NCBI GenBank assembly: GCA_951406725.2
Contig: OX597820.1
Span: forward strand, 25,172,001 to 25,236,000
Direction: 5' to 3'
Origin: Octopus vulgaris
Lineage: Eukaryota
Length of the DNA: 64,000 nucleotides
Shown here piece after piece: positions 9,584 through 57,900 of this stretch. How positions within the stretch are numbered: position 1 is the first letter of the stretch; each line of letters begins with the position of its first letter. The translations under genes and the position numbers were made by a program. Under the pieces are notes generated by a model. It ran no database searches and had not been told where the DNA came from. It saw nothing but the letters and a program-made list of their open reading frames with translations.

Positions 9584-10062
9584 TTATCACCTCTGCCTTA
9601 GCAAAGGCAGAATTATTGATTTTAGTCACATTTGTTTGTTTGTCCATAGACAAGATATCTCAAGAACTGCCAGATGGATTCAAATGAAATTTTCAGGGAT
9701 GTTTGGCCTCGTGACTGGCACAAAGTGATTAGATTTTTGGGATCGATTCGGTACCGGACAAGGATTCTGAATTATTTTTCCTGGATTTTTACTTAATTTT
9801 TGAGAGTGGTCGGGTTCATTTTTAGTATTCTCATTTGTGAGAGCGGTCGGGTTCATTTTTAGTATTCTCATTTGTGAGAGCGGTCGAGTTCATTTTTAGT
9901 ATTCTCATTTGTGAGAGCGGTTGAGTTCATTTTTAGTATTCTCATTTGTGAGAGCAGTCAAGTTTATTTCAGATATTCTCATTTTAAAAATCATCTCGGG
10001 TTACTGGCTGAGAGGACGTTGATGTTGCCTTGGTGGAGGTTTGTGCTCTCTGAGTGCTCTTA
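9584..10062 (+). mobile_element. Helentron-associated (HINE/DINE-1-like) non-autonomous element with internal 37-bp tandem repeat
   Basis: Subterminal inverted motif ACCTCTGCC / GGTGGAGGT, (GTTT)n tract, 3' hairpin-like GTGCTCTCTGAGTGC, T-rich insertion site. Confidence 0.65.
9802..9985. repeat. 37-bp tandem repeat, about 5 copies
   Basis: GAGAGCGGTCGGGTTCATTTTTAGTATTCTCATTTGT at 9802, 9839, 9876, 9913 and 9950. Confidence 0.9.
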
Positions 10063-13600: not shown

Positions 13601-13969
13601 CTTATTTGCTCAAAATTACTGTCTTTTTGCTAATATTATAAATCAATATTTAGTGATTAACCTCTGGTTTTCTACAACAGGCACTTGAAGCACAAGAGGA
13701 AACCAATTGTTTAATTGCAGTAATTCCCGAAGCTGAGGTAAGTAACTTGCAGACATCAATGTGCATTTTTATGTATTTTTATATATATTGTTCGTTCAGT
13801 TCTATATTTAAGAGATGAGGAATTATGTACATTATTTACATTCGACAGATATTTGTCCTCATCTTGTTCGTTGTTAACACAACATTTCGGCTGATATACC
13901 CTCCAAGCCTTCTTCAGGTGTCTTTGGGAAATTTCGAACCTGGGTTCTCATTCCTAAGGTATTTTTCGA

Positions 13970-14003
<34 letters not shown>

Positions 14004-16880
14004 TAGTTTTATTTTTATTTTTATAGCGTGCTTTCACTTCACTACCGAGCGCAGCTCTGTGTGCCTTGGGTATGTGCTGTGATTTGTTGTGATGCTCTGA
14101 TGGTTATTGTATGGAAAGTGTTCTGCGTAGGATGTGGGCAGTGCCTAGTAGTGCAATTTTCTGTATGTTATATGTGTTTGTAAGTCCTGGTGTTTTTGTT
14201 ATGTATTTGTCTGAATATTTTTTTATCATGCCTAATGCACCTACTATGATAGGAATTGTTTCTGTTTTCAGATTCCACATTCTAGTTACCTCTATTTCCA
14301 GGTCTTTGTATTTTGAGAGTTTCTCCATTTCTTTTAGAGACACGTTGTCATCTGCCGGTATTGATACATCAATTAAAAAGCATTTTTTTCTTCATGATCT
14401 CTGACAACTATATCTGGTCTGTTGGCCTTAATTTCTCTATCTGTGTGTATCGGCATATCCCAGAGTATGGTTGCTTTCTCGTTTTCTGTGACCTTTTCTG
14501 GTGTGTGCCTATACCATCTTTTTTCTGTTGTTATTCCATAATGTTGGCATAGCTTCCAATGTATGTAGGTTCCAACTCTGTCATGTCTGTGAATATATTC
14601 CTTCTTAGCCAGGACTGGGCAGCTAGAGATAATATGATTTATTGTTTCTTGTCTATCTCCACATATTCTGCAGTTACTTGTAATATTTCTTTTCATTACA
14701 TGTTTTTGGTAATTTCTGGTGGGGAGGCTTTGGTCTTGTGCTGCAATTAAAAATCCCTCTGTTTCTGCTTTGAGTCCTGAGCTTCTCAACCATTGCTGGG
14801 ATTTTTCTTTGTCTATTTCTTTTGCGTTTAGTTTAGTGCAGTATTTACCATGAAGGGGCTTTTCTTGCCATCGTTTTATCATGGTTCGTTGCTGTTCTGT
14901 TTTTAGTTTGGATTTCATTTGTTTTATAGCTTTTGTTGTTTCTTCATCTTCTTCTTCTTCATGTTTATTAGGTGGTATGATTTCTTGTTTGTATTTGTCA
15001 GCTTCCTTAAATACTGAGAACAGTTTTTTGTTTTGCTCGTGTTTTGCCGCTATCTGGATCAGTTTTCCTTCCTTCTGAAGTAGATATTTTTGCAGTCCTA
15101 TGGTGGTTATTTTATAGTAGTTTTCCAGCTGTATAAGGCCTCTACCACCTTCTATACGTTGTATATATAGTCTTTCTATGTCAGATTTTGGGTGATGCAT
15201 CCTAGATCCTGTCATTATTTTTCTTGTTTTCCTATCTATTTTGGTCAGTTCATTTCGTGTCCAGTTAAGGATATTGTAGCTGTAACTTATAACTGGGACA
15301 GCTAAAGTGTTGATACCTATTATCTTGTTTTTAGCATTGAGCTCTGTGTTTAGTATTGATCTAACTCGTCTATAATATTCTTTTTTTACTTTCTCTTTCA
15401 TTTGTGTGTGTTGTGTCTTATCTAGTTCATGGATTCCTAAGTATTTGTAAGTTTGGCTTTGGTCTAATTCTTTTATTTCATTGGTTTTATCTAGTGTGAT
15501 GTTGTTACTCTTAACTAGTTTTCCTCTTTTCATGGTTACTTTGGCGCATTTTTCTAATCCAAATTTCATATCTATTTCTTTGGTAAATCCATGAACTGTC
15601 TTTAATAGTGTTTCCAGCTGTTTGTCATTTGCAGCGTATAGTTTTAGGTCATCCATATATAAAAGGTGGCTGATCGTTTTGCCGTAACATTTATATCCGC
15701 ATCCAGTTCTATTTAGCATATCAGATAGAGGTGACAGTGCCAAGCAGAAAAGGAGTGGAGAGAGCGTGTCTCCCTGGAATATTCCTCTTCTAATGGGGAT
15801 GTCTTTGGTTTTCATGAGTCCCTCTTTTGTTTGGAGGTGTAGGACTGTTTGCCATTTATTCATAGAGTGCTCTATGAATTTTATGATTGTTGGTGCTACT
15901 TTGTTAATGGCTAGTGTTTCGAGGATCCATGTGTGGGGGATGCTATCAAACGCCTTTTTGTAGTCAATCCAGGCCATACTGAGGCCTTTCTTCTTTCTGT
16001 GGCTGTCTTCAGTTATGGCTTTATTAATCATTAGTTGATCTTTACAGCCATATGAGCCTTTGCGGCATCCTTTCTGCTCTTCTGGGAACAGTTTGTTTTC
16101 GTCCAGGTGCTTGTTCAGCCTTTGTGATATCACTGCAGTAAATGCCTTGAAAATAGTAGGGAGGCAGGTTATTGGTCTGTAGTTTTCTGGTTTTTCTGTT
16201 TCATTTGATTTGGGAATTAAGATGGTTTTCCCCTTCGTGAGCCATTCAGGCATTGTCTCTGGCTCTGCTAGTACGTTGTTAAAGTTTTCAGCCAGCTTTT
16301 TGTGCATTCCTGTTAGATATTTCAACCAGAAGTTGGGGATCTTGTCATGCCCAGGTGCCTTCCAGTTGCTTAGTCTTTGCAGTGCCTGGGTGACCTCTTC
16401 AGTTGTTATGGGGGTCCAAAGTTGTTCAGATGCCGAGTTTGTAATTTTGATACTCCTCTTTTTTGGTGGTTCGTTCGCCGACCATATCTCTCTCCAGAAT
16501 TCTTCCAATTCTTCTGCCGTTGGTGCTGCAGTGACTTCTATTTTATTTTTGCCCAGTTCTTGGTAGAACTTTTTGGGGTTGGAGCTGAACTTTTTGTTTT
16601 CTTCAAAGAAGCGTTGGCGTTTCTTGTACCGGCGGATCCTTTGTGCTTTGGCAAGGATATCTTGCTTCAGCTTTTCTTTTATTTCAGGCAAATCTTTCTC
16701 TGTCATGTTATATTTGCGGAGTATTTTTGTTCTCTTTTTGTTGCTCAGTAGCGTTGATTCTTTGCTGATTTCATTAAGAATCGACAGGTCTTTTCTAATT
16801 TTTTTTATTTTGCTTTGGATGTTATTTATCCACAGGGTTTGTTTGGGTGGTGGTACTCCTGTTTGGGCGGGTTTGGGTGA

Positions 16881-16927
<47 letters not shown>

Positions 16928-19900
16928 CATCATCATCATTGTTATTGCTACTATATGCCCACGAGCATATGGCGTAGGGATTAAGAGGGCAGGCTACTAA
17001 CCTCAAGATTCCAAGTTTAATTCCAAGCAGTGACCTGAACAATAACAATAATAATAATAATAACATCAAAAAATACCTTAGGAATGAGAATCCGGGTTTG
17101 AAATTTCCCCCAAGACACCTGAAGAAGGCTGGAGGGTATATCAGCTGAAACATTGTGTTAACAACAAACAAGATGAGGACAAATATCCGTTGAATGTAAA
17201 TAATATTGTTCGTTGTTCTTTTAAGTCTTCTATATGTTTTACATAGTATTTTGTGTCCACAGTTGCTTCAAGTGTATTTTGTGTATGCCACAGATATATT
17301 CCCTGCCAAGTATATATTTACTGTTTTTCTTTCTGTGTACACATACACCTCTCTCTCTCTCTCTCTCTCTGTATTCTTTCACTCTTTTACTTGTTTCAGT
17401 CATTTGACTGCAACCATACTGGAGCACCACCTAAAGGGGTTTCAGTCGAACAAATCAACCCCAAGACTTATTCGTTGTAAGCCTAGTACTTATTCTATCA
17501 TAAAATAAATATTAACAATTTTGGTTCTTTTCCCAGGAATTAGCACTGAAGTGTGATTCTCTGCCATCGGTGATAAAACCTCTCCATGGAATCCCAATTA
17601 GTCTGAAAGAAAATATAATCTACAAGGTTGGTTTCTCATTTGAACTGCAGTTCATGTATTTTCTCATTTTACCTTAAACTTTTCTCTGTAACTGTGGCAG
17701 TCATTAACTCTCTTCCCAGTTTCACCCCAATTACTCCTATCCTCTCTTCTATAATATAAGTAACCATGTAATGCCTCTACAGCTAGAAACCTGGTTTTTG
17801 CAACTAGCAAATTCTAGGTTTACAGTTTTATAAATTTATAAAGGAGTGGTTAGAGATCATGCGGTCGTTAGCCTCAAATCGTCTGGTCTGGTCAGCATTT
17901 GTGAGAGATGCAGCATTGAGGATGATTGAAGCCAGTTCAACCCACCCCGAGTGAATGCTGTCTCAAGACAAGAAGAAATTAAATTTTCCACTAAAGGTCA
18001 AATAAGCAACAGACTGACTAAGAAAGTAAAAAGGCTTGAGTAAGGCTGTTTGATCAAATAGACTTATGAGCAAAGACATTTCACTTACGACCATCCTGTC
18101 AGTTAGTATATCAGGAACTATATTGCTATAACAGTAAGGTTTGAGAGAGGTTTGGTTGCTGTTAATAACAGATCAGTTGACCATGTAGCAGCTCTGTTGA
18201 CTAGTAAAATTAACTTGAATGTTTGTTGCTTGATCTTCTTATAGTAACTGATCTCATTTTTTATTTATTTATTTATTTTTGCATCCAATTAGGGACTTTA
18301 CTCAACCAATGGTTTAGGTTCAAAGCTGTTGAACCCACCTTCTGCTCATGATTCAAATCTTGTTAAGGTATGTTTTATTTTTATACTTAAAATGTTCTTC
18401 AGCCAATTTAAGCAATCTCAGGACCACAATGCAGTTATGGTAGTGAATAGTGAGGGCTTAACCTAATTGATGTCTTTCTTCCCAAGACTGACTTTAATCC
18501 TATAATACATGGCACTAGAAATGTTTTAAAATAATTGCATTTAAATTAAAATTTCTGTCATGTAATAACGTTATGTTCTAAATACTAATTTAATAACAGA
18601 TTTATTTATTTTATCAAATCCTTTCAATGTCTTGAGTATTTTCAAAATTAATAGAAACCAAGTATTCGTTTAGAAATATCATCATAAGAGATAACCAAGT
18701 GTCGGCATTCTTTCGATATAAGTCCCATTTACTTCAACTGGATCACGTGTATTTGTTTACATTTGAAGAAGATCATCGTCACTTTCCGTAAATGTTTTAT
18801 TTTTTTACATTGTGGGGTGGGGGGAATGGTATCTTTTCAAGTCAGCGTAATGTGGGTGGGGGTGGTTAGGGTATCCTTTCAAGTCGGCGTAAAAGCCAGA
18901 CAAATTGAGCGTGAAGTTCTTTTGAAGCTGGCGTTCCGTTTGTTTGTGCGTGTGTGCGTGTGTGTATTTGTTTCCCCCAAACCCATATTGTAAAAAAATA
19001 AAAACTTTTTAACAGAAACCGACGATCTTCTTCAGAAATGTAAATAAACCCACGTGGTTTATAAGTGACAGTTATGTTACTAGTAACAAATGATCGCCCA
19101 AGTGTCTTACTCAAGGGACATAATCCATAATTTGTAAATAGCCTATTAACTAGGGGATTATTTTGTGTTGCTGCTTAGAAATACAAACTGTGGACTTTGG
19201 TAATGAATGTCTGTGGTGAGGAAAATCACGACAAACATTTTCCTATTAATAAAATCAGCACTGTCTTGACTGGCTCCCATGCCGGTGGCACGTAAAAAGC
19301 ACAATCCGATCATGGTCAATGCCTGGCCCCTGTGCCAGTGGCACGTAAAAAGCACCCACTGCACTCTTGGAGTGGTTGGCAATAGGAATGGCATCTAGCT
19401 GTAGAAACATTGCCAGAACAGACAGGGGTTGGCTGCAGCCTCCTGGCTTTCTAGACCCTAATCGAACCATCCAACCCATGCCAGCATGGAAAACAGATGT
19501 TAAACGATGATGATGTCAGTAAACAATTTACAGCATAAGTGAGATTTATTATTTCATTTGAGATACAAACAGGGGAATTGTTTAAAGATTAAAATTCAAA
19601 TTTTCTTTCTTTTATGAAATTCAGTGTTGCTTTGATTTATTTTTATTATTAAAATATTTACTACATTAAAAATAAAGATCATTAGAAATAAAAATAGATT
19701 ATTTCTAAGATCTAATGTAGCAACAACTTAAACGGACCATGTTAACACCAAAAATTATTTACATCAAAATAGTGCTTTTTTTCTATGAAAATCCCTATTT
19801 TTTTACGATTTTTTGACTGCTGTGTCACCATTTTTTGGTGTATTTCAACCAGAAATTTTTAGTGCAAAATATTGATTGGTCAAATCTACAAACTGTGCCA

Positions 19901-27172: not shown

Positions 27173-30100
27173 TTGATGATAAAAATTATTGTAAATTAAT
27201 TTCTCTTTTCAGTTATTTGAAGGAAAGAAAAACCTGCGGATTGGATATTATGTGACTGATAATACAGTTAGTTCTATCCCAGCCTGCCGCAGAGCAGTTC
27301 TTATGGCAAAGAAAGCATTGGAAGCTAAGGGGCATACGGTAAGAATGTTATCATTGTCATGATTATTATCATTATTATTATTATTACTTACTTACTTACT
27401 TTTAATTTGTATATTTGTTGCAATCACTTACTGAGACACACCCCGCACCCTAGGGCAAGTGAAGGTTAAGCGATGTTGAAATATAATTGAAAGCTTGGGT
27501 GGGGAGAATGGCTAAAGCAGTAGAAAAATACCTCCATATAATACAATATAAATTGATAGGGTTTTTCTAAGGATATGGGCAGTACTGGTCAGCACAATCT
27601 TTTGGATTTTCTTGAGACATGGTTCTCCTGGGATGTTGTCTAGCTTTTTTCTGACATACCTTTTTTATCATACATAGGGCACCCATAATTAGAGGAGCAG
27701 TTTTTGCTTTAAGATGGCACATCTTTTGTATTTCAATTTCCAGGACCTTGTATTTACTAAGTTTGTCAAATGTTAGCATGCCGGACAAAATTTTTAACAG
27801 CATTTCATCCATCCTTACATTCTAAGTTCAAATTCCACCAAGGTCTATTTTGCCTTTAATCCTAACTTCTACTGAGTTATCTGTGTTACATTTTTCACAA
27901 TCTGAATTTATAAAGACAAGGCAAAATGCAAAATCACTAACAAGAACACACACATACACACATATACAATAGGCAACTTTAATTTCTGTTGACCAGTTTC
28001 ACTCACAAAATATTGGTCAACCCACTGTTATAGTATAGAACATTAGCTAGCATCATACCTGCAGTGGGACTGAACTCCTTTCACCTGGTTCAGAAGCAAA
28101 CTTCTCGACCACACAGCCATGCCTACACCTTTGGCTATCCTTATAGCTCGTCTGTCAGTGCCTTTACAAAAATTGCAACAATAACAAATAGAATGATAGA
28201 CATATTCTTTAACCTCCATTTAATTCAAAACTAGGTCAGGGTAATTTCTGAGCTTTTCAGTTCAATTCTACTCAATATGACTTTCAAGTTTTGACACAAG
28301 GCCAGCAATTTTGGAGGTGGAACAGGTTGAACTGATTGCCCCCAGTACTCATTTGTACTTATTTCTTTAACCCCTAAATGATGAAAGGCAAGGTCAACCT
28401 CAGCAGAATTTGAACTCAAAATGTAAAGATAGACGAAATGCTGCTAAGCACTTTGCTCAGTATACAAATGATCCTGCTAGCTTGATGCCCACCACCAATT
28501 TAACCCTTTTGCTACCAACCTGACCAAAACCGCCTCTGGCTCTGCAGTACAAATGTCTTGTTTTCATAAGTATTGAATTAAAATCTTCCACCAAACCTTT
28601 GTCACAATTTATGTTCCTAACACTAGCTTAATGATAACTAAGTTCTTTTACTAAATTCTTCGTTATATTTAAAATTAATTGAATGAAACACAGAGCATAT
28701 CAAAATAAATACAGTAACAAAAGGGTTAATAATGGTTTCAAATTTTGTCTCTAGGCCAGAAATTTTAGGAGAGGGGTTAAATCAATTACACCAACCCCAT
28801 TTTTCAATTGGTACTTATTTTATCAAACCTGAAAGGATGAAAGACAAAGTTGACCCCAATGGCATCTGCACTCAGAACAAGCATTTTGCCTGGCATGCTA
28901 ACGATTCTGCCAGCTTGCTGCCCTTATATATGGCTTAATTATTGCTAACAAACTATTACCAGTTTACTTAGATTCTGAACTTTACCATATCTCTATTTTT
29001 TATAAATTTTTCTCTTGAGTTAATTTACCACTCAATGGATTGGATATTGCTTTGGCTGATATCCTCTGTCCTTTCACTCTGTCCTTTCCTTCAATCTTCC
29101 ATATCCATCATCTTCTACGTTTCACTTTGATTTTCATACAAATAGATGACTAAGTTCTATCCTATTTGCTCCTATAACGAAGCATACATCACTGATAAAT
29201 GTTGTTGTTTCATTTGATTTACAGGTCGTTGAATTTACTCCTCCCAGAATCCTGTATGCTCTCTGCTTAGCATCACGCATATTGTGGTTGGATGGCCGCA
29301 GATTAAGCAATATGGTGTAAGTATCTTATATAGTAAAATTCCAGAATGCTAGGAAACTAGTGGGGATTAGTGCAGCTGTTGTAAACACAATTAGAGAATT
29401 TGCAGTATAATAAAAAAATTTGATTACCAGGAGTGGAAAAACTCAATGCTTCAACCTCTTGATCTGCAGTAAAGAATAGAGAAAGATGTGTGGAAGAGGA
29501 AGACATGGACAAGGTGGCGAAGCACGATCTTCGGATGTTAAATCTCATGGAGACAACGCCAAGTGAGCGACACATTTGGGGATTTGCTGTGCTTGAGAAG
29601 ATATGTCAAGTGGAATCATAAATGTGACCAGTGCTAGTGACACATACAAGGTACCTGTGCTGGTGACATGGGCAGGGCACCCATGCTGGTGACATGTGCA
29701 GGGCACCCGTGCTGGTGACATGTGCAGGGCACCTGTGCTGGTGACATGTGCAAGGCACCCATGCTGGTGACATGTGCAAGGCACCCATGCTGGTGACATG
29801 TGCAGGGCACCCGTGCTGGTGGAATGTGCAAGGCAACCATGCTGGTGGCACATGCAGGGCACCCATGCTGGTGACACGTGCAAGGCACCCGTGCGGGTGA
29901 CACCTGCAGGGCACCCGTGCCGGTGACACCTGCAGGGCACTCGTGCCACACGTGCGGGGCACCTGTGCCGGTGACATGTGCAGGGTGCCAGTGACATGTG
30001 CAGGGTGCCGGTGACATGTGCAGGGCGCCAGTGACACGTGTGGGGTGCCAGTGACACATGCGTGGCGCCCATGCTGGTGACATGTGTGGGGCACTGTCAT

Positions 30101-34629: not shown

Positions 34630-37600
34630 TTTTTCTTTTTTCTTTCCATTTCCAGAAAATATCGTCAAATATATAGTTTGGTTGCTGAAAAAGAAGTAAG
34701 TCAGTTTAAAATATTCTTCTGTTTAAAGTAAGATGAGAATTGTAGTTTGCTTGAAGTAAAATAAAAATAATGAAGATGAAGTAAAATAACAAATAATGAA
34801 GATGAAGAGCTTCTTATGATGCAAAAAGGAAAAAATAAGTAATCGTTATATATTTCAAGTACAAAGGCCTATCACCAAAAGTGAACAGAATCGTAATTGA
34901 AATCAAATTCGATGACTGGCATCTGTACTAATGGAGCACTAAGAGTACCATACGAGTGAGATCGTGGCCAGAGCAAGCTGGCCTCCATGCCAATGGCACG
35001 TTAAAAACACCATTTGAGCGTGATCGTTATCGGCATCGCCTTACTAGCACTTGTGCTGGTGGCATGTGAAAAAAACATTTGAGCGAGGTCATTGCCAGTG
35101 CCACTGGACTGGCTCCTGTGCAGGTGGCACATAAAAAGCACCATTTGAGCATGGCCGTTGCCAGTACTGCCTGACTGGCCCTCGTGCCGGTGGCATGTAA
35201 AAGCACCCACTACACTCTTGGAGTGGTTGGCATTAGGAAGGACATCCAGCTGCAGAAACTCTGCCAGATCAGATTGGAGCCTAGTGCAGCCATCTGGTTC
35301 ACCAGTCCTCAGTCAAATCATCCAACCCATGCTAGCATGGAAAGCGGACGTTAAATGATGATGATGATTGACCAGATCTGCATAAACTTAGATTTCTTTA
35401 ATCCATTCGTGCCTGATGATGGGCATTTTTACCTGAAATATATAGAAGTTACTTAACTTTTTTTGCAACATAAGCTCTCCCTCTTCATTAAATTCAACCC
35501 TCAGAACCCCTGCAGCCACTATTCCGGCCACCAGCTGCAGATACAAATAACCCAGCAGCCACTTTACCGGCCAGTATTTTCTGATTTGGAAAACCAGACA
35601 ATAACTGCTGGTTTTACTGGCACCACAAGCACCAGTATTGGCAAAAAAAAAAAAAACTAGTGGTAACGACAATGTTGCCCTCTATTTGTCATTTCATTTC
35701 AATATGAGAGACAGAAAACACATTTTAGTCACAGTAAAATAATATTAGGTTGGAAATCATTTGCATTGCCTCTTTTATCCAGGGAACTTGGGGTGAGGTT
35801 GCAAAGGACAACAGGTATATGGGATTCAAAGGATTAAAGTAGTTTGTATGAAATTGTCTTTGAACGGTATGGTCAATATTGGTGACCATAGTTATGTCAG
35901 TGATATTACATAGTACTGGTTTCAAATTTTGGCACAGAGCCAGAAATTTAGTGGGGAGGGTGCTAAGTCATTTACAGAAATTTAGTGGGGAGTGAGGGGA
36001 GGGTGCTAAGTTATTTACATCGACCTCAGGGATCAACTGGTTCTTATTTTATCAACCACAAAAGGATGAAAAGTAAAGTTGACTCCAGCAGCATTTGAAC
36101 CCAGAACAAAAAGATGAACAATATACCACTACAACTGATGGACAACTTGAGCTCATGCATACACTTTCTTTTGTTTTATTGGGTTTTTTTTTTTCATATA
36201 ATACATTAATGTCCTTGGATTCTGATATGTATCTATTACACTATGTATTACTCACACTCTTATATTGAATTTAAACCAGGTGTTGGGTTCAGTCAAAAAG
36301 ATTTGAAACTTTTTCAGGAGAGGCATTTATTAATTTTAAAAAAAGTATAAAACTCTAATCTCCTTTAAAATAAGATCTTCTGACTTCAATGTACTTGTTG
36401 TAGCACTCTGGCCATTTCGTAAAGGCTCCATGGAAGACCTTCAAAGTTAAGGTGTCTTGGAACCTTGTTACAGTTTCAATCTTCTCAATGTTTTCAAAAC
36501 AGCTACCTGCCAGCTTGGGGAATAACTAAAAGTCACAAGGAGCAATATTTGGACTGCAGGGTTGGTTAGGGACAGTTTTGAAGTCCACCTCTGTCAAGTA
36601 GTTGCTTACCAGGATAGAATTGTGACAAGCAGTGTTTAGTGGGTTGTGACAAGCAGCATTTAGTAGGCTGTGACAAGCAACGTTTGATAGGCTGTGACAA
36701 GCAGTGCTTGGTAGGCTGTGACAAGCAGCATCTGGTAGGCTGTGGCAAACAGCATTTGATAGGCTGTGACAAACAGCATCTAGTAAAGTGTATTCAATAT
36801 GCTGTTTCAGCCAGCTCCTCTAATTGGATTGTCAAATTAATTGCTGTTTAGTAATGAGGTACTAAAATTACAATAATCTAGAACAGTTATAACTGTATCT
36901 CCTACAAAATACTTCTGCAATGCATCTAGTATATTGATAAATTGCACATGAATAAGAGTATTTCACTACATAGTCATCTTTCGAAAGATTAAGACTTGAG
37001 ACTCTTGCTACCAGTTCATATAAATGCTTGAATTTGTTTGAAAAACATTCCATATTTTTGATATATTAGTAAATTGTAAGCATTTCATGAATATGAACAT
37101 CTCTAATATGAACATGTTATACATTTGTAGATTGCCACAATTTGGTCTGTATCTAGTATGAGGGATTTCTCTGTTACTCTTCAAGTGATTATTCAGCTAT
37201 ATTTGCACCATTTAAGTAAAGTACTCACTTGGAGTAAACAGATTTGTTGTCACACACTTAGAATCATTACTTATTACTGGTGATCCTGAATTAGATTTAT
37301 GATTTATGTTTCAGAAATACGATAAAGAATTTGCTGATGCTATGCAAAAAGATAAATTGGATGCTCTCATCTGCCCTGTCATGTCTTCGACATCACTACT
37401 GATAAAGTGTTCAAACTTTGGAAGTAAGTCCATAACACTTTAAATTAACCTAAATTGAACATTTGAAAAGTAAACTTCTAGAAAACTTAATCGCTTTACT
37501 CTTTTCTCTCTTTTACTTGCTTCAGTCATTTGATTGCAGCCATGCTGGAGCACCGCCTTTAATCGAGCAACTCGACCCCGGGACTTATTCTTTTGTAAGC

Positions 37601-39156: not shown

Positions 39157-41313
39157 GTATATATCATATATATATATATATATATATATATACGTGGTCT
39201 GATCAATAAGTATCCGGACTGTTGCATTGTATGGAATCGAATGCATGCAGAGTCAAGCTGTTAGGACAGATTGACCTTGAATTCTGCTGATATGCACACT
39301 GTTTTAACATTCTAGCTCACTTCTGCTGTTTACAGCAGTTCTTGGAAGGAAGGTGTGTAGCATGTGATCATCACATTGACCATGGCAGAGAAAGTTGAGC
39401 AGAGAATCTGCATCAAATTTTGCCAAAAGCTGGTAATACTGGCTCAAAGGATCACGGTTTTGATTCCCAGACCGGGCGTTGTGAGTGTTTATTGAGCTAA
39501 AACACCTAAAAGCTCCACGAGACTCCAGCAGGGGATGGTGATCCCTGCTGTACTCTTTCACCACTCTTTCTTCTGTTGGCCTGCTCGCTTAGCCAGCGGG
39601 GTGGCGTCATTCGAAGGCTAAAACAATGCGAACACATTGTGACCAGCAATGTGTAACTTCATCTGATGGACTGGTTGATCACATGATGTATTTATGTATG
39701 TATGTATGTATGTATTTATGTATGTATGTATATATTTATGTATTTATGTATGTATGTATGTATGTATGTATTTATGTATGTATGTATGTTTTTACGTATG
39801 TATGTATGTATTTACGTATGTATGTATTTATGTTTGTATGTATGTAGGTATGTGTGTATGTAGGTGCATAGGTATGTAGGTGTATGTATTTATCTCTGTA
39901 TTTGCGTGTATGTATTTATCTCTGTATGTATGTTTGTGAGTTCTTTTTTTTTTTTTTATAAATTACAGGATAATCACCCCTCTTCAAAGCAAGCAGAGTT
40001 GGTGACATGAAGGGCATTTAGTCATAGTAAACTTTGCTCCAATGTACTCTCATTTAACCCATGCAAACAGGAAAAAGCAGACATCAAAATGATGGTGATG
40101 AAAATTATCTTATTAAACCCTGAAAGGGTTAAATGCAAAGTTGACTACAGTTGGATTTGAACTCAGAACGTAAATCTGGTGCCTAACTGATTCAGCAAAT
40201 AGGAAAATTTGGAAAATACAACTAACATTACTGTGTAGTAAGAAGTTTACTTCCCAAACACATGGTTCTAGGTTCAGCACCCCTGCATGGCACTTTGGGC
40301 AAGTGTCTTCTGTGGTCTCAGGTCAACCAAAGCCTTGTGAGTGGATTTGGTAGAAGAAAACTGAAAGAAGCCCATCACACACACAGACACGTGTTTTCGC
40401 TCAATAAACACACACAACGCCCGGTCTGGGAATTGAAGCCATGATCCTCTGACCACGAGTCCGCTGCCCTAACCACTGGGCCATTGTGCCTCCACTGTTG
40501 TCATATAACTTAATGTATTCTCTGAATTATCGACCTTGTTTTTCATATATATTTACAGAATTAACTTCTACTCTAGATTTTGATCTTTTTTATCACTTGA
40601 TGATGATCAGACATAAATCTAGTCAAAACATTTTGTAAAAATAAATGTTGTAAATATACATTCTAAAGGTATGGTTAATATTATGTATACTGTTTATATT
40701 AGTGAGACTGGTGTCCTCATCTTGATTGCTGCTTTCACTACATCTCGGCTGTTATAAGCTCCAGCCTTCTTCAGGTGTTTTGTGTTGAACTTAGTTGTTG
40801 TATTGGAATATCAAACTTAACCTTTTATTTGATCCATGGAAGTACCTTGTTTTCATTCTGCTCTCTGCATTTCATGGCATTTCATACTTTTGTGAATTAC
40901 CTTAGTGCTTTGCCTTGAATTGAACTCAGAACTTCTAGAATTGTAAGTTTAAATAACCTGTGAAATTGCATAATCTTAATTCATTCTTATGTATTCGCAC
41001 AGTCACATTAAATTAATATCTATTTATTTTCTATAAGAAGATAAGTAAAGTTATACATCTTAAGCAGCTCAGACATGCACCAAGGTTTAAATTTATGCCA
41101 TTGTGAACTGCAGTTCAGTGAGGTTATCTTAAACTTTATTGACATGGACTCATTTATAAACATTCCATATATATGTTTTGTTTTTTGCAGTCAATTCCAG
41201 GCAGTGTTGGACTCCCAGTCAATGTCCAGGTTGTTGTTCCTACATATAAGGATGAGCTTGCATTACACATCATGAAAGAACTGGATAGTGAACTGAAGAA
41301 GAAAAGCAACTAG
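10188..41313 (+). CDS. FAAH: Fatty-acid amide hydrolase (FAAH/VDHAP-like amidase), copy 1; 17 coding exons, first coding exon disrupted as assembled
   Basis: Exons 2-17 (1527 nt, 508 aa + stop) splice in frame with GT-AG sites. They encode PLHGIPISLKEN (catalytic Lys), PAGSSGGE and [11 protein letters not shown] (Ser-Ser), GPMA, LRIGYY, LDALICP, YNLLNYP and GLPVNVQVV. Confidence 0.93.
11283..11396 (+). CDS. FAAH: FAAH copy 1 exon 2 (114 nt)
   Basis: ag|LTEEMRTRILSLDIAELQKKLKDRSLKAIDVLQAYQYK|gt; matches paralogue 58465-58578. Confidence 0.92.
11835..12165 (+). mobile_element. mariner deletion derivative
   Basis: TA + TTGGGTTGTCC terminus; MEDKKVHFRHLMLW fused to TRQKLLQLGWDVLPHPPYSPDIA. Confidence 0.8.
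13681..13737 (+). CDS. FAAH: FAAH copy 1 exon 3 (57 nt)
   Basis: cag|ALEAQEETNCLIAVIPEAE|gtaagt; matches paralogue 61094-61150. Confidence 0.92.
13797..14000 (-). mobile_element. 3' half of hammerhead-containing SINE (family F)
   Basis: Reverse complement of 17040-17204, plus an extra 3' tail. Confidence 0.8.
13876..13922 (-). ncRNA. Minimal type I hammerhead ribozyme motif (slightly decayed)
   Basis: Minus strand reads GACAC CUGAAGA A GGCU..AGCC GAAA UGUU GUGUU; core boxes and stems I and II are present. Confidence 0.55.
14001..16882 (-). mobile_element. 5'-truncated non-LTR retrotransposon, R4/Dong-like clade (RT, CCHC, restriction-like endonuclease)
   Basis: NYRPITCL, EQKG, WIDYKKAFDS, GIFQGDTLSP, HLLYMDDLK, CRICGDRQETINHIISSC, RHD, RPDIVV, KLSKY; one frameshift at the T-run near 14385; stop at 14104; (TAA)n at both junctions. 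Confidence 0.92.
16962..17202 (+). mobile_element. tRNA-headed SINE family F with internal (TAA)n and hammerhead-like 3' domain
   Basis: A-box-like TGGCGTAGGGA (16970), B-box-like AGTTTAATTCC (17014), TAA tract, then GACAC-CTGAAGA-A-GGCTG..CAGCT-GAAA. Confidence 0.75.
17114..17159 (+). ncRNA. Minimal type I hammerhead ribozyme motif (CpG-decayed)
   Basis: GACAC CUGAAGA A GGCUG gaggguauau CAGCU GAAA CAUU GUGUU. Confidence 0.5.
17537..17626 (+). CDS. FAAH: FAAH copy 1 exon 4 (90 nt, catalytic Lys)
   Basis: cag|ELALKCDSLPSVIKPLHGIPISLKENIIYK|gt. Confidence 0.93.
18293..18367 (+). CDS. FAAH: FAAH copy 1 exon 5 (75 nt)
   Basis: tag|GLYSTNGLGSKLLNPPSAHDSNLVK|gtatgt. Confidence 0.88.
18718..19123. 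mobile_element. MITE-like foldback element
   Basis: Inverted arms CACGTG..TTTACATTTGAAGAAGATC (about 18744-18800) and GATCTTCTTCAG..TGTAAA..CACGTG (about 19000-19057); GTCCC/GGGAC ends. Confidence 0.55.
20310..20702 (-). mobile_element. Non-autonomous Helitron
   Basis: Minus strand A|TC start, 3' hairpin CCCGAGCAACACCGGG, CTAG|T end; second copy at 54124-54570, fragment at 19730-19856. Confidence 0.8.
21114..21450 (+). mobile_element. tRNA-derived SINE family D (other copies about 50350-50675 and 59745-59945, minus)
   Basis: TGGCTCAGTGG A box and GAGTTCAAATCC B box; body repeated elsewhere in the window. Confidence 0.75.
21532..21593 (+). CDS. FAAH: FAAH copy 1 exon 6 (62 nt)
   Basis: cag|CLKELGAVPFVTTNVPQTLM(S)|gtgagc. 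Confidence 0.93.
22295..23422 (-). mobile_element. Tc1-like transposon remnant
   Basis: MAPKGKELSKDLKKIIVHLHKNG and KHGVKSVMLWGC...FQHDNDPKH; direct-repeat motif GGGTGTACATA at about 23211 and 23393; multiple stops. Confidence 0.85.
23530..23736 (+). CDS. FAAH: FAAH copy 1 exon 7 (207 nt, amidase signature)
   Basis: [64 protein letters not shown]; cag acceptor, gtaagt donor. Confidence 0.96.
23840..24205 (+). mobile_element. SINE family A, degenerate
   Basis: Aligns with 7651-8058. Confidence 0.7.
24532..24572 (+). CDS. FAAH: FAAH copy 1 exon 8 (41 nt)
   Basis: tag|(G)TGSLSIAAEKQDL|gtaaga; phases 2/1 fit the neighbouring exons. Confidence 0.85.
24890..25235 (-). mobile_element. RTE-type LINE 3' fragment
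   Basis: KRPLGRPPVRWEDDLRK C-terminal motif. Confidence 0.7.
25575..25699 (+). CDS. FAAH: FAAH copy 1 exon 9 (125 nt)
   Basis: cag|HPSIGPMAQTADGLIIAAKALFSKNVFEMDPRIAPIEFQNH|gtaagg. Confidence 0.93.
26935..27130 (-). mobile_element. SINE family C (other copies about 28285-28490, 28735-28920, 57800-58010, 63540-63880)
   Basis: Reverse complement of the 56777-57010 type. Confidence 0.7.
27213..27338 (+). CDS. FAAH: FAAH copy 1 exon 10 (126 nt)
   Basis: cag|LFEGKKNLRIGYYVTDNTVSSIPACRRAVLMAKKALEAKGHT|gtaaga. Confidence 0.93.
27390..27775 (-). mobile_element. Old R4/Dong-like LINE 3' fragment
   Basis: KLSKYKVLEIEIQKMCHLKAKTAPLIMGALCMIKK is homologous to 14104-14343; ends at a (TAA)n tract. Confidence 0.75.
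28504..28725. mobile_element. piggyBac-like MITE
   Basis: TTAA|CCCTTTTGCTAC...GTAACAAAAGGG|TTAA; similar element at about 30475-30694. Confidence 0.75.
29225..29316 (+). CDS. FAAH: FAAH copy 1 exon 11 (92 nt)
   Basis: cag|VVEFTPPRILYALCLASRILWLDGRRLSNM|gtaagt. Confidence 0.88.
29625..30090. repeat. GC-rich minisatellite (26-bp unit, about 20-bp variants) following an RTE 3' fragment
   Basis: GTGCTGGTGACATGTGCAGGGCACCC repeated head to tail. Confidence 0.9.
30368..30455 (+). CDS. FAAH: FAAH copy 1 exon 12 (88 nt)
   Basis: cag|KHEPPSKELFFLRITENFAKILASLLYFI|gtaagt; phase-compatible. Confidence 0.82.
31100..32480 (+). mobile_element. Ty3/Gypsy pol fragment (RNase H end, integrase), degenerate
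   Basis: GHADCLPRL, GHLGMPRMKALMSSCVYW..CSGC zinc-binding motif, PWSRVHINYAGP, YHLRSNMQVERFV; frameshifts. Confidence 0.88.
32748..32989. mobile_element. hAT (Charlie-like) MITE
   Basis: CAGTGTTACTCAAA / TTTGAGAACCATTG TIRs; 8-bp TSD CACTAGAG/CATTAGAG. Confidence 0.75.
33182..33225 (+). CDS. FAAH: FAAH copy 1 exon 13 (44 nt)
   Basis: Long polypyrimidine tract, cag|DNTSYQILCSLDGS|gtgagt; phase-compatible. Confidence 0.8.
33891..34230 (+). mobile_element. SINE family A
   Basis: Aligns with 7651-8058. Confidence 0.75.
34551..34624. repeat. (CT)n microsatellite next to the exon 14 acceptor
   Basis: Seen directly. Confidence 0.95.
34656..34695 (+). CDS. FAAH: FAAH copy 1 exon 14 (40 nt)
   Basis: cag|KYRQIYSLVAEKE|gtaagt; phase-compatible. 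Confidence 0.83.
36285..36585 (-). mobile_element. mariner 3' fragment
   Basis: Minus strand QPCSPNIAPCDF*LFP ... YNKYIEVRRSYFKGD*. Confidence 0.7.
36620..36785. repeat. 24-bp tandem repeat, about 7 copies
   Basis: TGTGACAAGCAGCATTTGGTAGGC units. Confidence 0.9.
37315..37423 (+). CDS. FAAH: FAAH copy 1 exon 15 (109 nt)
   Basis: cag|KYDKEFADAMQKDKLDALICPVMSSTSLLIKCSNFG|gtaagt. Confidence 0.9.
37497..37913 (-). mobile_element. SINE family A, full length
   Basis: Reverse complement of the 7651-8058 type. Confidence 0.85.
38398..38531 (+). CDS. FAAH: FAAH copy 1 exon 16 (134 nt)
   Basis: tag|FPSYTLLYNLLNYPVVSMPVTKVTEEDVKNTYSVKTLTEYFVKK|gtggaa. Confidence 0.9.
38760..39030. repeat. Foldback element between (TA)n tracts
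   Basis: About 55-bp inverted arms AAATTAGTAAAAAACCACCTTTAATCAATTCAACAA and its reverse complement. Confidence 0.7.
39193..39435 (+). mobile_element. mariner 5' fragment
   Basis: TA|CGTGGTCTGATCAATAAGT terminus; MAEKVEQRICIKFCQKL. Confidence 0.7.
39445..39690 (+). mobile_element. SINE family E (related sequence at about 40388-40495, 60060-60256 and 62503-62612)
   Basis: Shared TTCCCAGACCGGGCGTTGTGAGTGTTTATTGAG segment. Confidence 0.65.
39688..39935. repeat. (TATG)n microsatellite
   Basis: Seen directly. Confidence 0.95.
41191..41313 (+). CDS. FAAH: FAAH copy 1 terminal coding exon 17
   Basis: cag|SIPGSVGLPVNVQVVVPTYKDELALHIMKELDSELKKKSN*. Confidence 0.92.
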   Translation, partial: SIPGSVGLPVNVQVVVPTYKDELALHIMKELDSELKKKSN

Positions 41314-54940: not shown

Positions 54941-57900
54941 GTAAGTATTTGAAATATATATTTCTGTATTTCTCTCTCACATCACTTCTCTTTCTCACTA
55001 TATATATATATATATATATCTCATGCTACCCTTCACTTCACTCACTTAAGCTCTTGCCTCCTATGGAGCTTAGGCCACTGACAACTTTTCTTTATTGTTC
55101 TTGACTCTTGGTAGTTTTTCTGCTCCCCTCCAGTTGAATCCTTGCTCATCTTTATCTTCCTTGCAGTTTCCTTTTTTTTTATTTAGTGGCATGGTATTCC
55201 CTGAGGGAAGGCCTTCCTCTCTCAAGTCTTGTTGGCTTTGAATTATCATTAATGCTTCTTTGAGCTTTTTTTTTTTTGCCCTACACAAACCCATATTAGT
55301 ATTAACCTCTATCCTTTGACCCTGTCCGGTATGGGAGGCCCTATCAAGGGGATTGAACATTACTGGTATAACTCTCAGAGTCAGTGGGGCACACAAGCCA
55401 AAACACTGCAACAAGTGTTGGACATTCTGTTGGCATGTTACCCATTATTTTCTTAGCCATATTTTTTTCTCCCTTACTCTTTTATTTTCTGTATCTTTTA
55501 CTTTCTACATGTTTCAGTCATTAAACTGTGGCCATGCTGGGGCACTGCCTTAAATAATTTTTAGTTGAATGAATCGAGACCAGTACATTTTTTCATTGCT
55601 TGGCACTTATTTTATTGATCTTATATGCCAAACTGCTAAGTTACCAGGACATAAATGAACCAGCACTGGTTGTCAGGCAGTGATGTGGTGAACAAACACA
55701 GACACACACAACTAGATATATACATATATATCTGTTTAACATTGTCCCAAAAGATATCAAAGAGGAAAAGGATCCCATCATCTTGAAACGGAGTCTGAAC
55801 ATATTTCTTCAAGGAATACCAGATAAGCCACCCATACCTGGATACAACTCACTCAACAAGAACTCACTATTTGAATGGACCATAAACAAAACTTGACTTA
55901 AACAGGATTTAGACAATCCTATCAGATTGTGCTATTAAGTTAGACATGGCCAGGACCAATCTTTTGTCAAAACATATCTAAGTTTATCTTAGTTTATATG
56001 TATATATACAGTGGGCTTCTTTCAGTTTCCATCTACCAAATCCACACACAAGGCTTTGGTCAACCCAAGGCTATAGTAGAAGACACTTGCCCAAGGTGCC
56101 ATGCAGTGGGACTGAACCCAGAACCATGTGGTTGGGTAGCAAGCTTCTTACCACACAGCCATGACTACACCTGGTTTATTCTTATTTTTCTCATTAGTTT
56201 ATTCTCTTTTTCTGAATCTCAACTAATTAGCTTGGTTTGGTGTTGGCTCCACTTGACAAACAACTGATAGCCAGTTTTTCATTTTTATATAAGTCACATA
56301 TCAGATTTGTATTCATTCCTTTGCTATCAGTATGCTGTGTCATTCTTACTGGAGGTGAATGCAGCATTCAGTGACTAAATTCAATTGACTGTAAATAAGT
56401 AGCACAGCATTTTGGGCAAATATCTTTGACTATAGCTACAAGCTGACCAAAGCCTTATGAGTAAAACTAATAGGAAACTGAAAGAAGCCCATCATGTGTG
56501 AAGCTTGCCGCCCAACCACATGGTTCTGGGTCCAGTCCCACTGTGTGGCACCTTGGGCAAATGTCTTCTTCTATAGCCTCAGGCCAACCAAAGCCTTGTG
56601 AATGGGTTTGGTGGATGGAAACTGAAAGAAGCCCATCATGTGTGAAGCTTGCCTCCCAGCCACACGGTTCTGGGTTCAGTCCCACTGTGTGGCACCTTGG
56701 GCAAATGTCTTCTTCTATAGCCTCAGGCCAACCAAAGCCTTGTGAGTGGAATTCGAGGACAGAAACTGAAAGAAGGTAGCGAGCTGGCAGAAATGTTAGC
56801 AATACGGGCGAAATGCTTAGCGGTATTTCGTCTGCCGTTACGTTCTGAGTTCAAATTCCGCCAAGGTCGACTTTGCCTTTCATCCTTTTGGGGTCGATAA
56901 ATTAAGTACTAGTTACGCACTGGGGTCGATGTTATCGACTTAATCCCTTTGTCTGTCCTTGTTTGTCCCCTCTATGTTTAGCCATTTGTGGGCAATAAAG
57001 AAATAAGAAACCCGTCATATATATATTTGTGTGTTTCTGTCCCTGTGTTTGTCTCCCTACCATTACTTGACAACTGATGTTGGTATGTTTATGTCCCCAT
57101 AACTTAGCAGTTAGAATAAGTACTTGGCTTACAAAGAATAAGTCTTGGGGTCAATTTCTTCAAGTAAAACCCTTTAATGTGGTGCTCCAGCATGGCCACA
57201 GTCAAATGGCTGAAATGAGTAAAAGAAAAAAAGAATATATATATATATATATATATATATATCAAAGGCAACTCCAGGTCATCAGTGTTACTCAGGCTCA
57301 TCACAGATTTTGCATAAGACACAAGCCTAAAAGAAGGTAAGAGACCTAATGCACACTGCAGATTTATGTGTGCACTGATAATTTAAAAATAAGACAGAAA
57401 TAAAGTTTTAATGTGTCTTTCTCAATTTTAAGTTAAGGGTCAAAATAAAGCAACCCTGTAAAACACAAATTAATGCCTGATTAATTCAAAACGATGTGAA
57501 TAAATAGACGTTACATTTGACAGAATAATCTGAACGCTAAAGGGTTAACAGTTGAAGCTCTCACTAGCAAAGTCAGTAATGAAGAATCCTTCTTCATGCA
57601 CTATAGCAGGAATTCTAAATAAAAAATCTTTCTTCTTTTTCTTTTTCTTACTCTTTTAAAACTTCATCATATCTAATTGTGAATATATCTCATTGCTACT
57701 GAACCTTCAGTCATGTGTGCTTGTTGTAAAATTCATTGGACATTTGAACTATTTTATTGTCTGTTTCTGTGTCAAGACAGTGAGCTGGTTGAATTCTGCC
57801 AGTGGTGAGCTGGCAGAATGGTTAGCATGCTGGGAAAAATGCTTAGAGGCATTTCGTCGGTCTTCTTGTTCTGAGTTCAAATTCTGCCGAGGTCAACTTT

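Follow-up and report, generated by a model that had tools for sequence, protein, structure and literature searches.

A head-to-head pair of Penelope pseudo-LTRs with a tRNA-like head in Octopus vulgaris, and a younger LINE nested within it

A stretch of 64,000 nucleotides of Octopus vulgaris contig OX597820.1 (the window; coordinates count from its first letter) contains a composite insertion bounded by a 12-bp target-site duplication (TSD). This insertion is very probably a head-to-head pair of truncated pseudo-long terminal repeats (pseudo-LTRs, pLTRs) of an autonomous Penelope/Poseidon-type element, which likely arrived in one event with a single duplication of the target. A much younger, unrelated, TAA-targeting long interspersed nuclear element (LINE) of R4/Dong-like type likely landed in one of the two arms long afterwards. 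The pLTR starts with a tRNA-like head whose A and B boxes are inferred to be a promoter. A preliminary description of the locus had proposed a dimer of a short interspersed nuclear element (SINE) that RNA polymerase III (Pol III) transcribes, mobilised by borrowed Penelope enzymes and joined with the LINE in a three-way system.

Anatomy of the insertion

The 12-mer ATATTGTTCGTT is present at 13785-13796 and again at 17203-17214, and has no further occurrence in the window on either strand, so that the duplication seen earlier stands. The probability of such a match by chance is about 5e-7 per site, or 3e-4 when a boundary slack of 25x25 is allowed; the first two bases of the right copy match the element end as well. 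The two copies enclose two inverted arms with their 3' ends outward, which are 91% identical over 166 nt. Their bodies differ at 11 of 141 columns (7.8%), and the arms differ from the majority sequence of the family by 4% and 7%.

The plus arm is composed of the tRNA-like head (16962-17037, with the A box at 16970-16980 and the B box at 17014-17024, both slightly decayed), a (TAA)n tract that holds no LINE (17038-17063) and a body (17064-17202, with the ATG at 17084) that ends without a tail. The minus arm starts with about 15 nt of head-like sequence (16948-16961), an inverted copy of the head start that could be a fold-back or an internally deleted head, and passes directly into its own TAA tract. 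The LINE (14001-16881) splits this tract into a 5' part (16882-16947) and a 3' part (13973-14000). The minus-arm body follows (13831-13972, with the A of the start codon at 13951), and then a 34-nt 3' extension, the tail (13797-13830), which in full-length copies codes for the N-terminus of the open reading frame (ORF). Thus the inverted arms described earlier are real, but the outward tails are not symmetrical, since only the minus arm has one.

The palindrome at which two heads had been thought to meet, ATATGC-CCACGA-GCATAT, is confirmed at the arm junction, its left half being provided by the 15-nt segment. It forms a hairpin of -8.8 kcal/mol, equalled by 4 of 200 shuffles. However, only the plus arm has a full head, and the palindrome is an extension of the hairpin at the element's own 5' end, which is also present in single copies (e.g. 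L009, L010, L017 and L020). It is therefore no proof of two heads meeting.

The arms belong to a coding Penelope element

Searching the genome (2.8 Gb) with the plus arm as query yielded 4773 first-look candidates, of which 40 were scored. A top-hit sample of 58 loci, selected for resemblance to the complete plus arm, comprises 53 distinct other copies once five duplicates or overlaps (L093, L100, L101, L107 and L115) are removed. At 7 of 29 other loci, a common upstream sequence encodes the thumb of a Penelope reverse transcriptase (RT) and a GIY-YIG endonuclease (EN), ending about 30 nt before the head, and 9 of the 53 top-hit copies continue upstream into the end of this ORF. Upstream walking revealed that the repeat also opens the ORF: at L156 head, TAA tract, body and tail all run straight into it, and at L165, L171 and L174 body and tail continue into it in frame. 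The majority tally of copies, which are 84-94% identical to it, gives a single ORF of 835 amino acids (aa), whose ATG follows the head at a distance of 112 nt, within the body of the supposed SINE, and whose first ~51 codons are made of the hammerhead motif and the tail. The full element has the order head-(TAA)n-ATG-835-aa RT/GIY-YIG ORF-30 nt-head-(TAA)n-body, bounded on either side by a pLTR that takes in the start of the ORF, and the arms in the window correspond to its first ~270 nt.

Homology supports this arrangement independently. The N-terminus of the ORF is 43% identical to a database protein, P0005 (E 4e-32), and the RT-thumb-EN part is 33% identical to an 836-aa RT and GIY-YIG protein of Anolis carolinensis (E 7e-48); 131 relatives were found. 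Natural copies carry the motifs YVDD and VYSIPCSCG..Y.GET. The majority ORF matches Pfam RVT_1 (E 1.5e-7); the Pfam search gave no GIY-YIG match, and the endonuclease is called from motif and homology. The element is assigned to the EN-containing (EN+) Penelope-like elements (PLEs) of Penelope/Poseidon type from its domain order and homology rather than from an RT tree with named references. Since the linkage to the ORF and the independent N-terminal homology agree, the arms are, as judged from sequence, the pLTR of an autonomous element of this type and not a free-standing SINE.

Three loci, L027, L032 and L033, were first read as sharing a 5' boundary of the element. This reading was rejected, as what they share, compared with the majority, is a local inversion of about 110 nt around the RT catalytic region, and most copies are unbroken there. 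A different rearrangement is seen at L008/L107, an internally deleted Penelope with a pLTR, the first ~130 codons, the next head directly after them and an inverted partner, possibly a short non-autonomous derivative.

Insertion signature across the genome

An inverted partner is found on the 5' side of 34 of the 53 top-hit copies and on the 3' side, in tail-to-tail orientation, of none. In all 26 pairs whose two arms both reach the 3' end, exactly one arm is tailed, and 21 of these 26 complete pairs have a TSD of at least 7 bp (7-15 bp), as compared with 6 of 102 displaced controls; the TSD of L430 is weak, sitting in a CA repeat. Since resemblance to the query had governed the choice of the top-hit copies, a second sample was drawn from 80 stretches of 10 kb, placed at fixed positions (800 kb). 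They contain 11 insertion sites, of which 7 are head-to-head pairs, all one-tailed, with a TSD of at least 7 bp in 5. Head-to-head pairs with a TSD and one tail are the commonest insertion form in this sample, and 11 sites in 0.8 Mb extrapolate to about 40,000 insertions genome-wide. The excess of inverted pairs that the preliminary description had anticipated is therefore present, and its idea of a single Penelope-type event is supported by the single TSD, the one-sided tail and the orientation of the pairs.

Paired arms also resemble each other more than shuffled pairs do (7.7% against 8.5% difference, P 0.001, 35 pairs), and have 54 variants in common as compared with 39 in shuffled pairs; the two arms in the window agree at both diagnostic sites. 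The signature is familiar from other PLEs. The accessible text of PMC3846280 describes Penelope of Adineta with inverted pLTRs, 8-10-bp TSDs, an optional 31-bp tail and a palindrome at the pLTR 5' end, and that of PMC8557442 gives the same insertion anatomy for PLEs in general. In Poseidon_Ac, according to the part of PMC11167929 consulted, the hammerhead likewise marks where the ORF begins, and the tail corresponds to the stretch that separates two RT start sites.

The nested LINE

The LINE lies on the minus strand, is 5'-truncated and is found, as had been noted, within the TAA tract of the minus arm. It encodes an RT (Pfam RVT_1, E 4.9e-33) followed by a CCHC knuckle and the PD..D motifs of a restriction-like endonuclease (RLE), with a stop at 14104 and a 3' untranslated region (UTR) of about 100 nt. 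R2 proteins are its nearest solved structures, being the best matches in the Protein Data Bank, and its relatives are about 1200 aa long. Membership of the R4/Dong clade is proposed from these features and from the target, not from a tree of named references. The reading frame is shifted in an A-run near 14380 (14371-14393). Among 28 matches in 30 other loci (L061-L090), this run is A7 in 19, as in the window, A8 in 7 and A9 in 2; the frameshift could stem from an assembly error in the homopolymer, or it could mark a defective but prolific subfamily.

Two probes, 331 nt of the 3' end and 321 nt of the 5' part, are 100% identical in all of the best 40 scored matches, and the LINE is 99.0-99.7% identical to the 23 copies whose alignments exceed 1.5 kb, whereas the arms around it are 7.8% apart. 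These distances suggest that the LINE is much younger than the arms, roughly ten times, which fits the earlier proposal that it targeted the TAA tract afterwards. All 30 LINE 3' ends inspected lie in (TAA)n and none in pLTR body, and the 8 visible 5' junctions are all TAA-rich; the LINE is a latecomer that targets TAA tracts in general. The TAA tracts beside young copies extend from hundreds of bases to more than 1 kb (L385, L401, L070 and L071), and tandem LINE-TAA-LINE arrays are common (L061, L072, L077 and L085), as if each insertion lengthened and renewed the target. As far as the accessible portions of the sources go, among the LINE groups of Octopus vulgaris with recent activity Dong-R4 is the most numerous (PMC13282606), for O. 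bimaculoides a Dong element is described without sign of recent activity (PMC9115989), and Dong of Bombyx has 7 upstream TAA repeats (PMC3774820).

The tRNA-like head and the missing T runs

In the family, the head contains an A box and a B box that are spaced as in a tRNA. It shares 50 of 74 positions with a genomic tRNA-Arg(TCT), with a score of 58 against 25+-4.5 for shuffles. Across 80 control PLE loci, a few of them possibly missing their ends, a tRNA profile gave a single weak match (E 0.55); the A/B-box pattern is found in 3 of 30 loci of the family itself and in 1 of the 80 controls, there inside an ORF. The controls were taken from metagenome contigs, because the Anolis protein used as a query of the octopus genome returned only the tRNA-headed Penelope family itself, at 30 of 30 loci. 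As many as 43 of the 53 top-hit copies begin within -28 to +12 nt of the head, so that the point at which copies tend to stop is likely the 5' end of the RNA.

An older sister pLTR-like repeat is represented in the window by a fragment at 40672-40800 (minus strand) and elsewhere by 958 first-look candidates, 30 of which were taken as loci (L271-L300). Its body is about 72-80% identical and encodes a similar peptide with the hammerhead in the same frame, without a TAA tract. Inverted partners are frequent, and the 9 of the 30 loci chosen for alignment have an A/B-box-like head, with an A-B spacing about 10 nt longer.

Pol III terminates at runs of four or more T. The sense strand of the 2.88-kb majority sequence has no such run; 3.0 would be expected in the ORF under synonymous shuffling (P 0.021) and 5.0 under a third-position model (P 0.004). 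The LINE in the window, taken as a control, has 5 runs where 4.6-5.2 are expected. In 30 natural copies there are 24 against 74 expected, and the 80 other PLE loci, with 569 against 514, are not depleted overall. It is possible, although slightly short of probable, that the tRNA-derived boxes act as a promoter from which Pol III reads the whole T-run-free ORF.

Alternative explanations

The composite could have been assembled in other ways. The arms might have inserted independently, or the LINE might have moved with them, as a composite or coupled to the pLTR repeat in the three-way system of the preliminary description. At least seven other LINE copies sit in the TAA tract of a pLTR (L058, L098, L212, L213, L218, L383 and L386), and some pairs have discordant arms. 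But the truncation points of these LINE copies differ where visible, one exact TSD encloses both arms of the window, the one-tail rule holds in 26 of 26 pairs, and the LINE is far younger than the arms. A LINE 5' junction follows a pLTR head in 2 of 24 other copies. Taken together, LINE junctions fall in the pLTR repeat in 2 of 54 cases (3.7%), about the chance share, since some 4-5 of the 103 TAA tracts in the fixed-position sample belong to pLTRs; a three-way system is thus not indicated. The best 40 scored matches include no second copy of the composite, and no other match exceeds 91% over the 211-nt junction of LINE and body, so that a LINE carried along with the dimer finds no support. 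Independent arms, a co-mobilised LINE and the three-way system are largely refuted and very improbable. An independent Pol III SINE, with solo pLTRs as masters and Penelope proteins acting in trans, would make the window a dimer of that SINE. The pile-up of copy starts at the head would fit such a lineage, as would the fact that at 0 of the 11 fixed-position sites does a copy continue into the ORF 3' end, that no ORF-linked copy of the sister family was seen in 30 loci, and that the A/G haplotype makes up 25 of 60 head-start copies and 11 of 53 ORF-linked ones. However, this last skew is no surprise, since resemblance to the A/G arm of the window was the basis on which head-start copies were selected. 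In sequence, the short copies are of the same kind as the coding element's pLTR, and priming in the 5' pLTR of its full-length RNA would give the same SINE-sized product. Both main haplotypes occur in both classes, whose divergence is similar at 5.1% (head-start) and 5.8% (ORF-linked); no solo-specific haplotype appears at the four sites compared, in a small and biased sample. As haplotypes are shared and the ATG is retained in 56 of 60 head-start copies, the data do not establish a SINE lineage of its own. The borrowed-enzyme SINE of the preliminary description is unlikely, its unit being Penelope's own pLTR plus ORF start.

The head itself admits another explanation, which is given nearly an even chance: it could be a captured tRNA relic in the 3' UTR and pLTR, with transcription by RNA polymerase II (Pol II) from a promoter of the pLTR or by read-through, and the missing T runs due to chance or to A-rich codon bias. 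The headless controls that are equally poor in T runs (6 of 80) agree with it, as does the fact that translation normally proceeds from a capped mRNA. In the accessible text of PMC3846280, other PLE pLTRs are described with TATA- and initiator (Inr)-like motifs. Against a mere relic, the family keeps both boxes at tRNA spacing, a head-like segment persists in the sister family at ~72% identity, copy 5' ends pile up at the head, and the T-run depletion holds under two codon-aware nulls.

Several observations also count against the reading of the insertion as a single Penelope event and of its head as a Pol III promoter. No intact full-length copy was seen among the copies examined. Most arms in the fixed-position sample stop within the body, and the head start is reached at only 2 of 11 sites. 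At an A/T transversion site in the hammerhead core, 9 of 30 pairs are discordant, so that for many pairs either two templates were used or the arms did not arrive in a single event; the discordance suggests that the two arms frequently derive from separate RNAs or from different pLTRs of a single RNA. No joint skipping the insert, that is, no empty allele, appears among the matches listed from contigs of samples X1, X2, X3, X5 and X6, so that the single-event reading of the locus rests on its signatures. A 152-nt contig over the filled left junction is present in X2, X5 and X6 and not in X3, at about the depth of the flank, and with only 24 nt inside the element it is too short to count as bridging. 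As for the head, the Arg assignment is weak, because only 17 distinct genomic tRNAs were compared. ARAGORN finds no tRNA in 18 loci, nor with relaxed settings on the majority sequence, and the tRNA profile matches several family heads (best E 4e-5) but not the copy in the window. The six equally depleted controls (ratio <=0.33), 4 of the 80 having no T4 run and none of them a detectable head, make the T-run signal modest at the level of the family (about P 0.05-0.08), and it is one data point from one family. Pol III RNAs are uncapped, so translation of the ORF needs an explanation.

Proposed mechanism of insertion

For the paired Penelope pLTRs, the model proposed here starts from the biochemistry of Poseidon, as far as it is set out in the portion of PMC11167929 consulted. 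The GIY-YIG enzyme would nick both strands 12 bp apart, and each nick would prime cDNA at one of two internal RNA sites about 34 nt apart, so that one arm would be tailed and the other tailless. Copying of the plus arm would continue up to the head, likely the RNA 5' end, where about 15 nt would be copied back at the terminal hairpin before joining to the other cDNA, that of the minus arm, which would have stopped in the TAA tract. The LINE would have inserted later into that tract. Priming in the 5' pLTR of full-length RNA would be enough by itself to yield SINE-sized copies.

The hammerhead motif

The pLTR contains a minimal type I hammerhead, recognised by motif and fold, with CUGANGA, a bulged base, stem II, GAAACGUU and a closing stem. 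In the window, CTGAAGA lies at 13911-13917 in the minus arm and at 17119-17125 in the plus arm, and the GAAA ends at 13885 and 17150, respectively. Rfam reports no ribozyme or tRNA at gathering score, and neither is among its 7 weak E-value matches; the fold energies are no better than those of shuffles. Both copies in the window are changed in the palindromic CG, with loss of one base of the palindromic helix III, so both are probably inactive. A minimal PLE hammerhead is described in the accessible part of PMC4209133 as active only as a dimer, and weakly.

Genomic surroundings

A likely plus-strand gene has exons at 13681-13737 and 17537-17626, with a GT donor after 13737 and an AG acceptor before 17537; the second has a weak Pfam Amidase match (E 0.003, below the cut-off). 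The whole insert thus appears to lie in an intron of this predicted gene, with the LINE antisense to it. The window also has minisatellites at 29627-30056 (26/20 nt), 36621-36785 (24 nt), 9796-9984 (37 nt) and 56473-56775 (144 nt), and several abundant dispersed repeats (families D7-D20).

Comparison with known systems

The comparisons that follow rest on the accessible portions of the sources. Like Poseidon_Ac of Anolis (PMC11167929) and Pen2a/Pen3a of Adineta (PMC3846280), the octopus element has a single ORF of ~835 aa with RT followed by a C-terminal GIY-YIG domain, a pLTR that includes the ORF start and the hammerhead, an inverted 5'-truncated pLTR, a one-sided tail of ~30-40 nt, TSDs of 8-15 bp and a palindrome at the pLTR 5' end. 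Unlike them, its pLTR starts with a putatively tRNA-derived A/B-box head and (TAA)n, and its sense strand is free of T4 runs; no such head is mentioned in those descriptions.

A Pol III promoter and a hammerhead are likewise combined in one short repeat in the SINE-like retroposons SM-alpha and Sj-alpha of Schistosoma (PMC6765202). These are described as non-coding tandem repeats, whereas the octopus unit is a coding terminal repeat, mostly in inverted pairs. The TRIMs (terminal-repeat retrotransposons in miniature) Cassandra, Helenus and Ajax (PMC10886601) also have a small-RNA-derived Pol III promoter within a terminal repeat, but they are non-autonomous LTR elements without an ORF, while the ORF of the octopus PLE starts just behind its head. 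Animal non-LTR retrozymes (bioRxiv 10.64898/2026.07.22.740005) are PLE-derived hammerhead repeats as well; they are tandem non-coding units, and no tandem array is seen at the octopus locus. The nested LINE resembles R4/Dong-clade LINEs (PMC3774820, PMC13282606) in its single ORF of RT-CCHC-RLE order, its insertion into TAA repeats and its very young copies.

A literature search by title and abstract found nothing on a tRNA-headed or Pol III-transcribed Penelope or on a Penelope-mobilised SINE; repeat databases (Repbase and Dfam) and most subscription journals lay outside its scope, and prior annotation is possible.

Significance

As a composite, the locus is ordinary: one known kind of element nested in another. 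What is unusual is a tRNA-type head before the ATG of a coding Penelope, a sense strand free of T runs and a sister family that is tRNA-headed as well. Protein-coding retrotransposons are taken to be transcribed by Pol II, and SINE heads are taken to mark non-coding parasites. Tentatively, an autonomous Penelope group of the octopus lineage may have swapped its promoter for a tRNA-derived internal Pol III promoter and purged terminators from a 2.5-kb RT ORF. Its single transcript would then serve as both mRNA and template, and internal priming in the 5' repeat would mass-produce SINE-sized copies, so that a coding retrotransposon would be its own SINE.

If this is true, a tRNA-headed, terminator-free Penelope blurs the line between coding retrotransposons and SINEs, and provides a direct model for the origin of SINE-like repeats from PLEs. 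The insertions estimated for this genome, many of them paired, are a large natural data set for the unsettled mechanism of Penelope integration, including the use of two start sites, priming on both strands and whether one template is used or two. Some of the sequences annotated as SINEs in such genomes may be the ends of PLEs.

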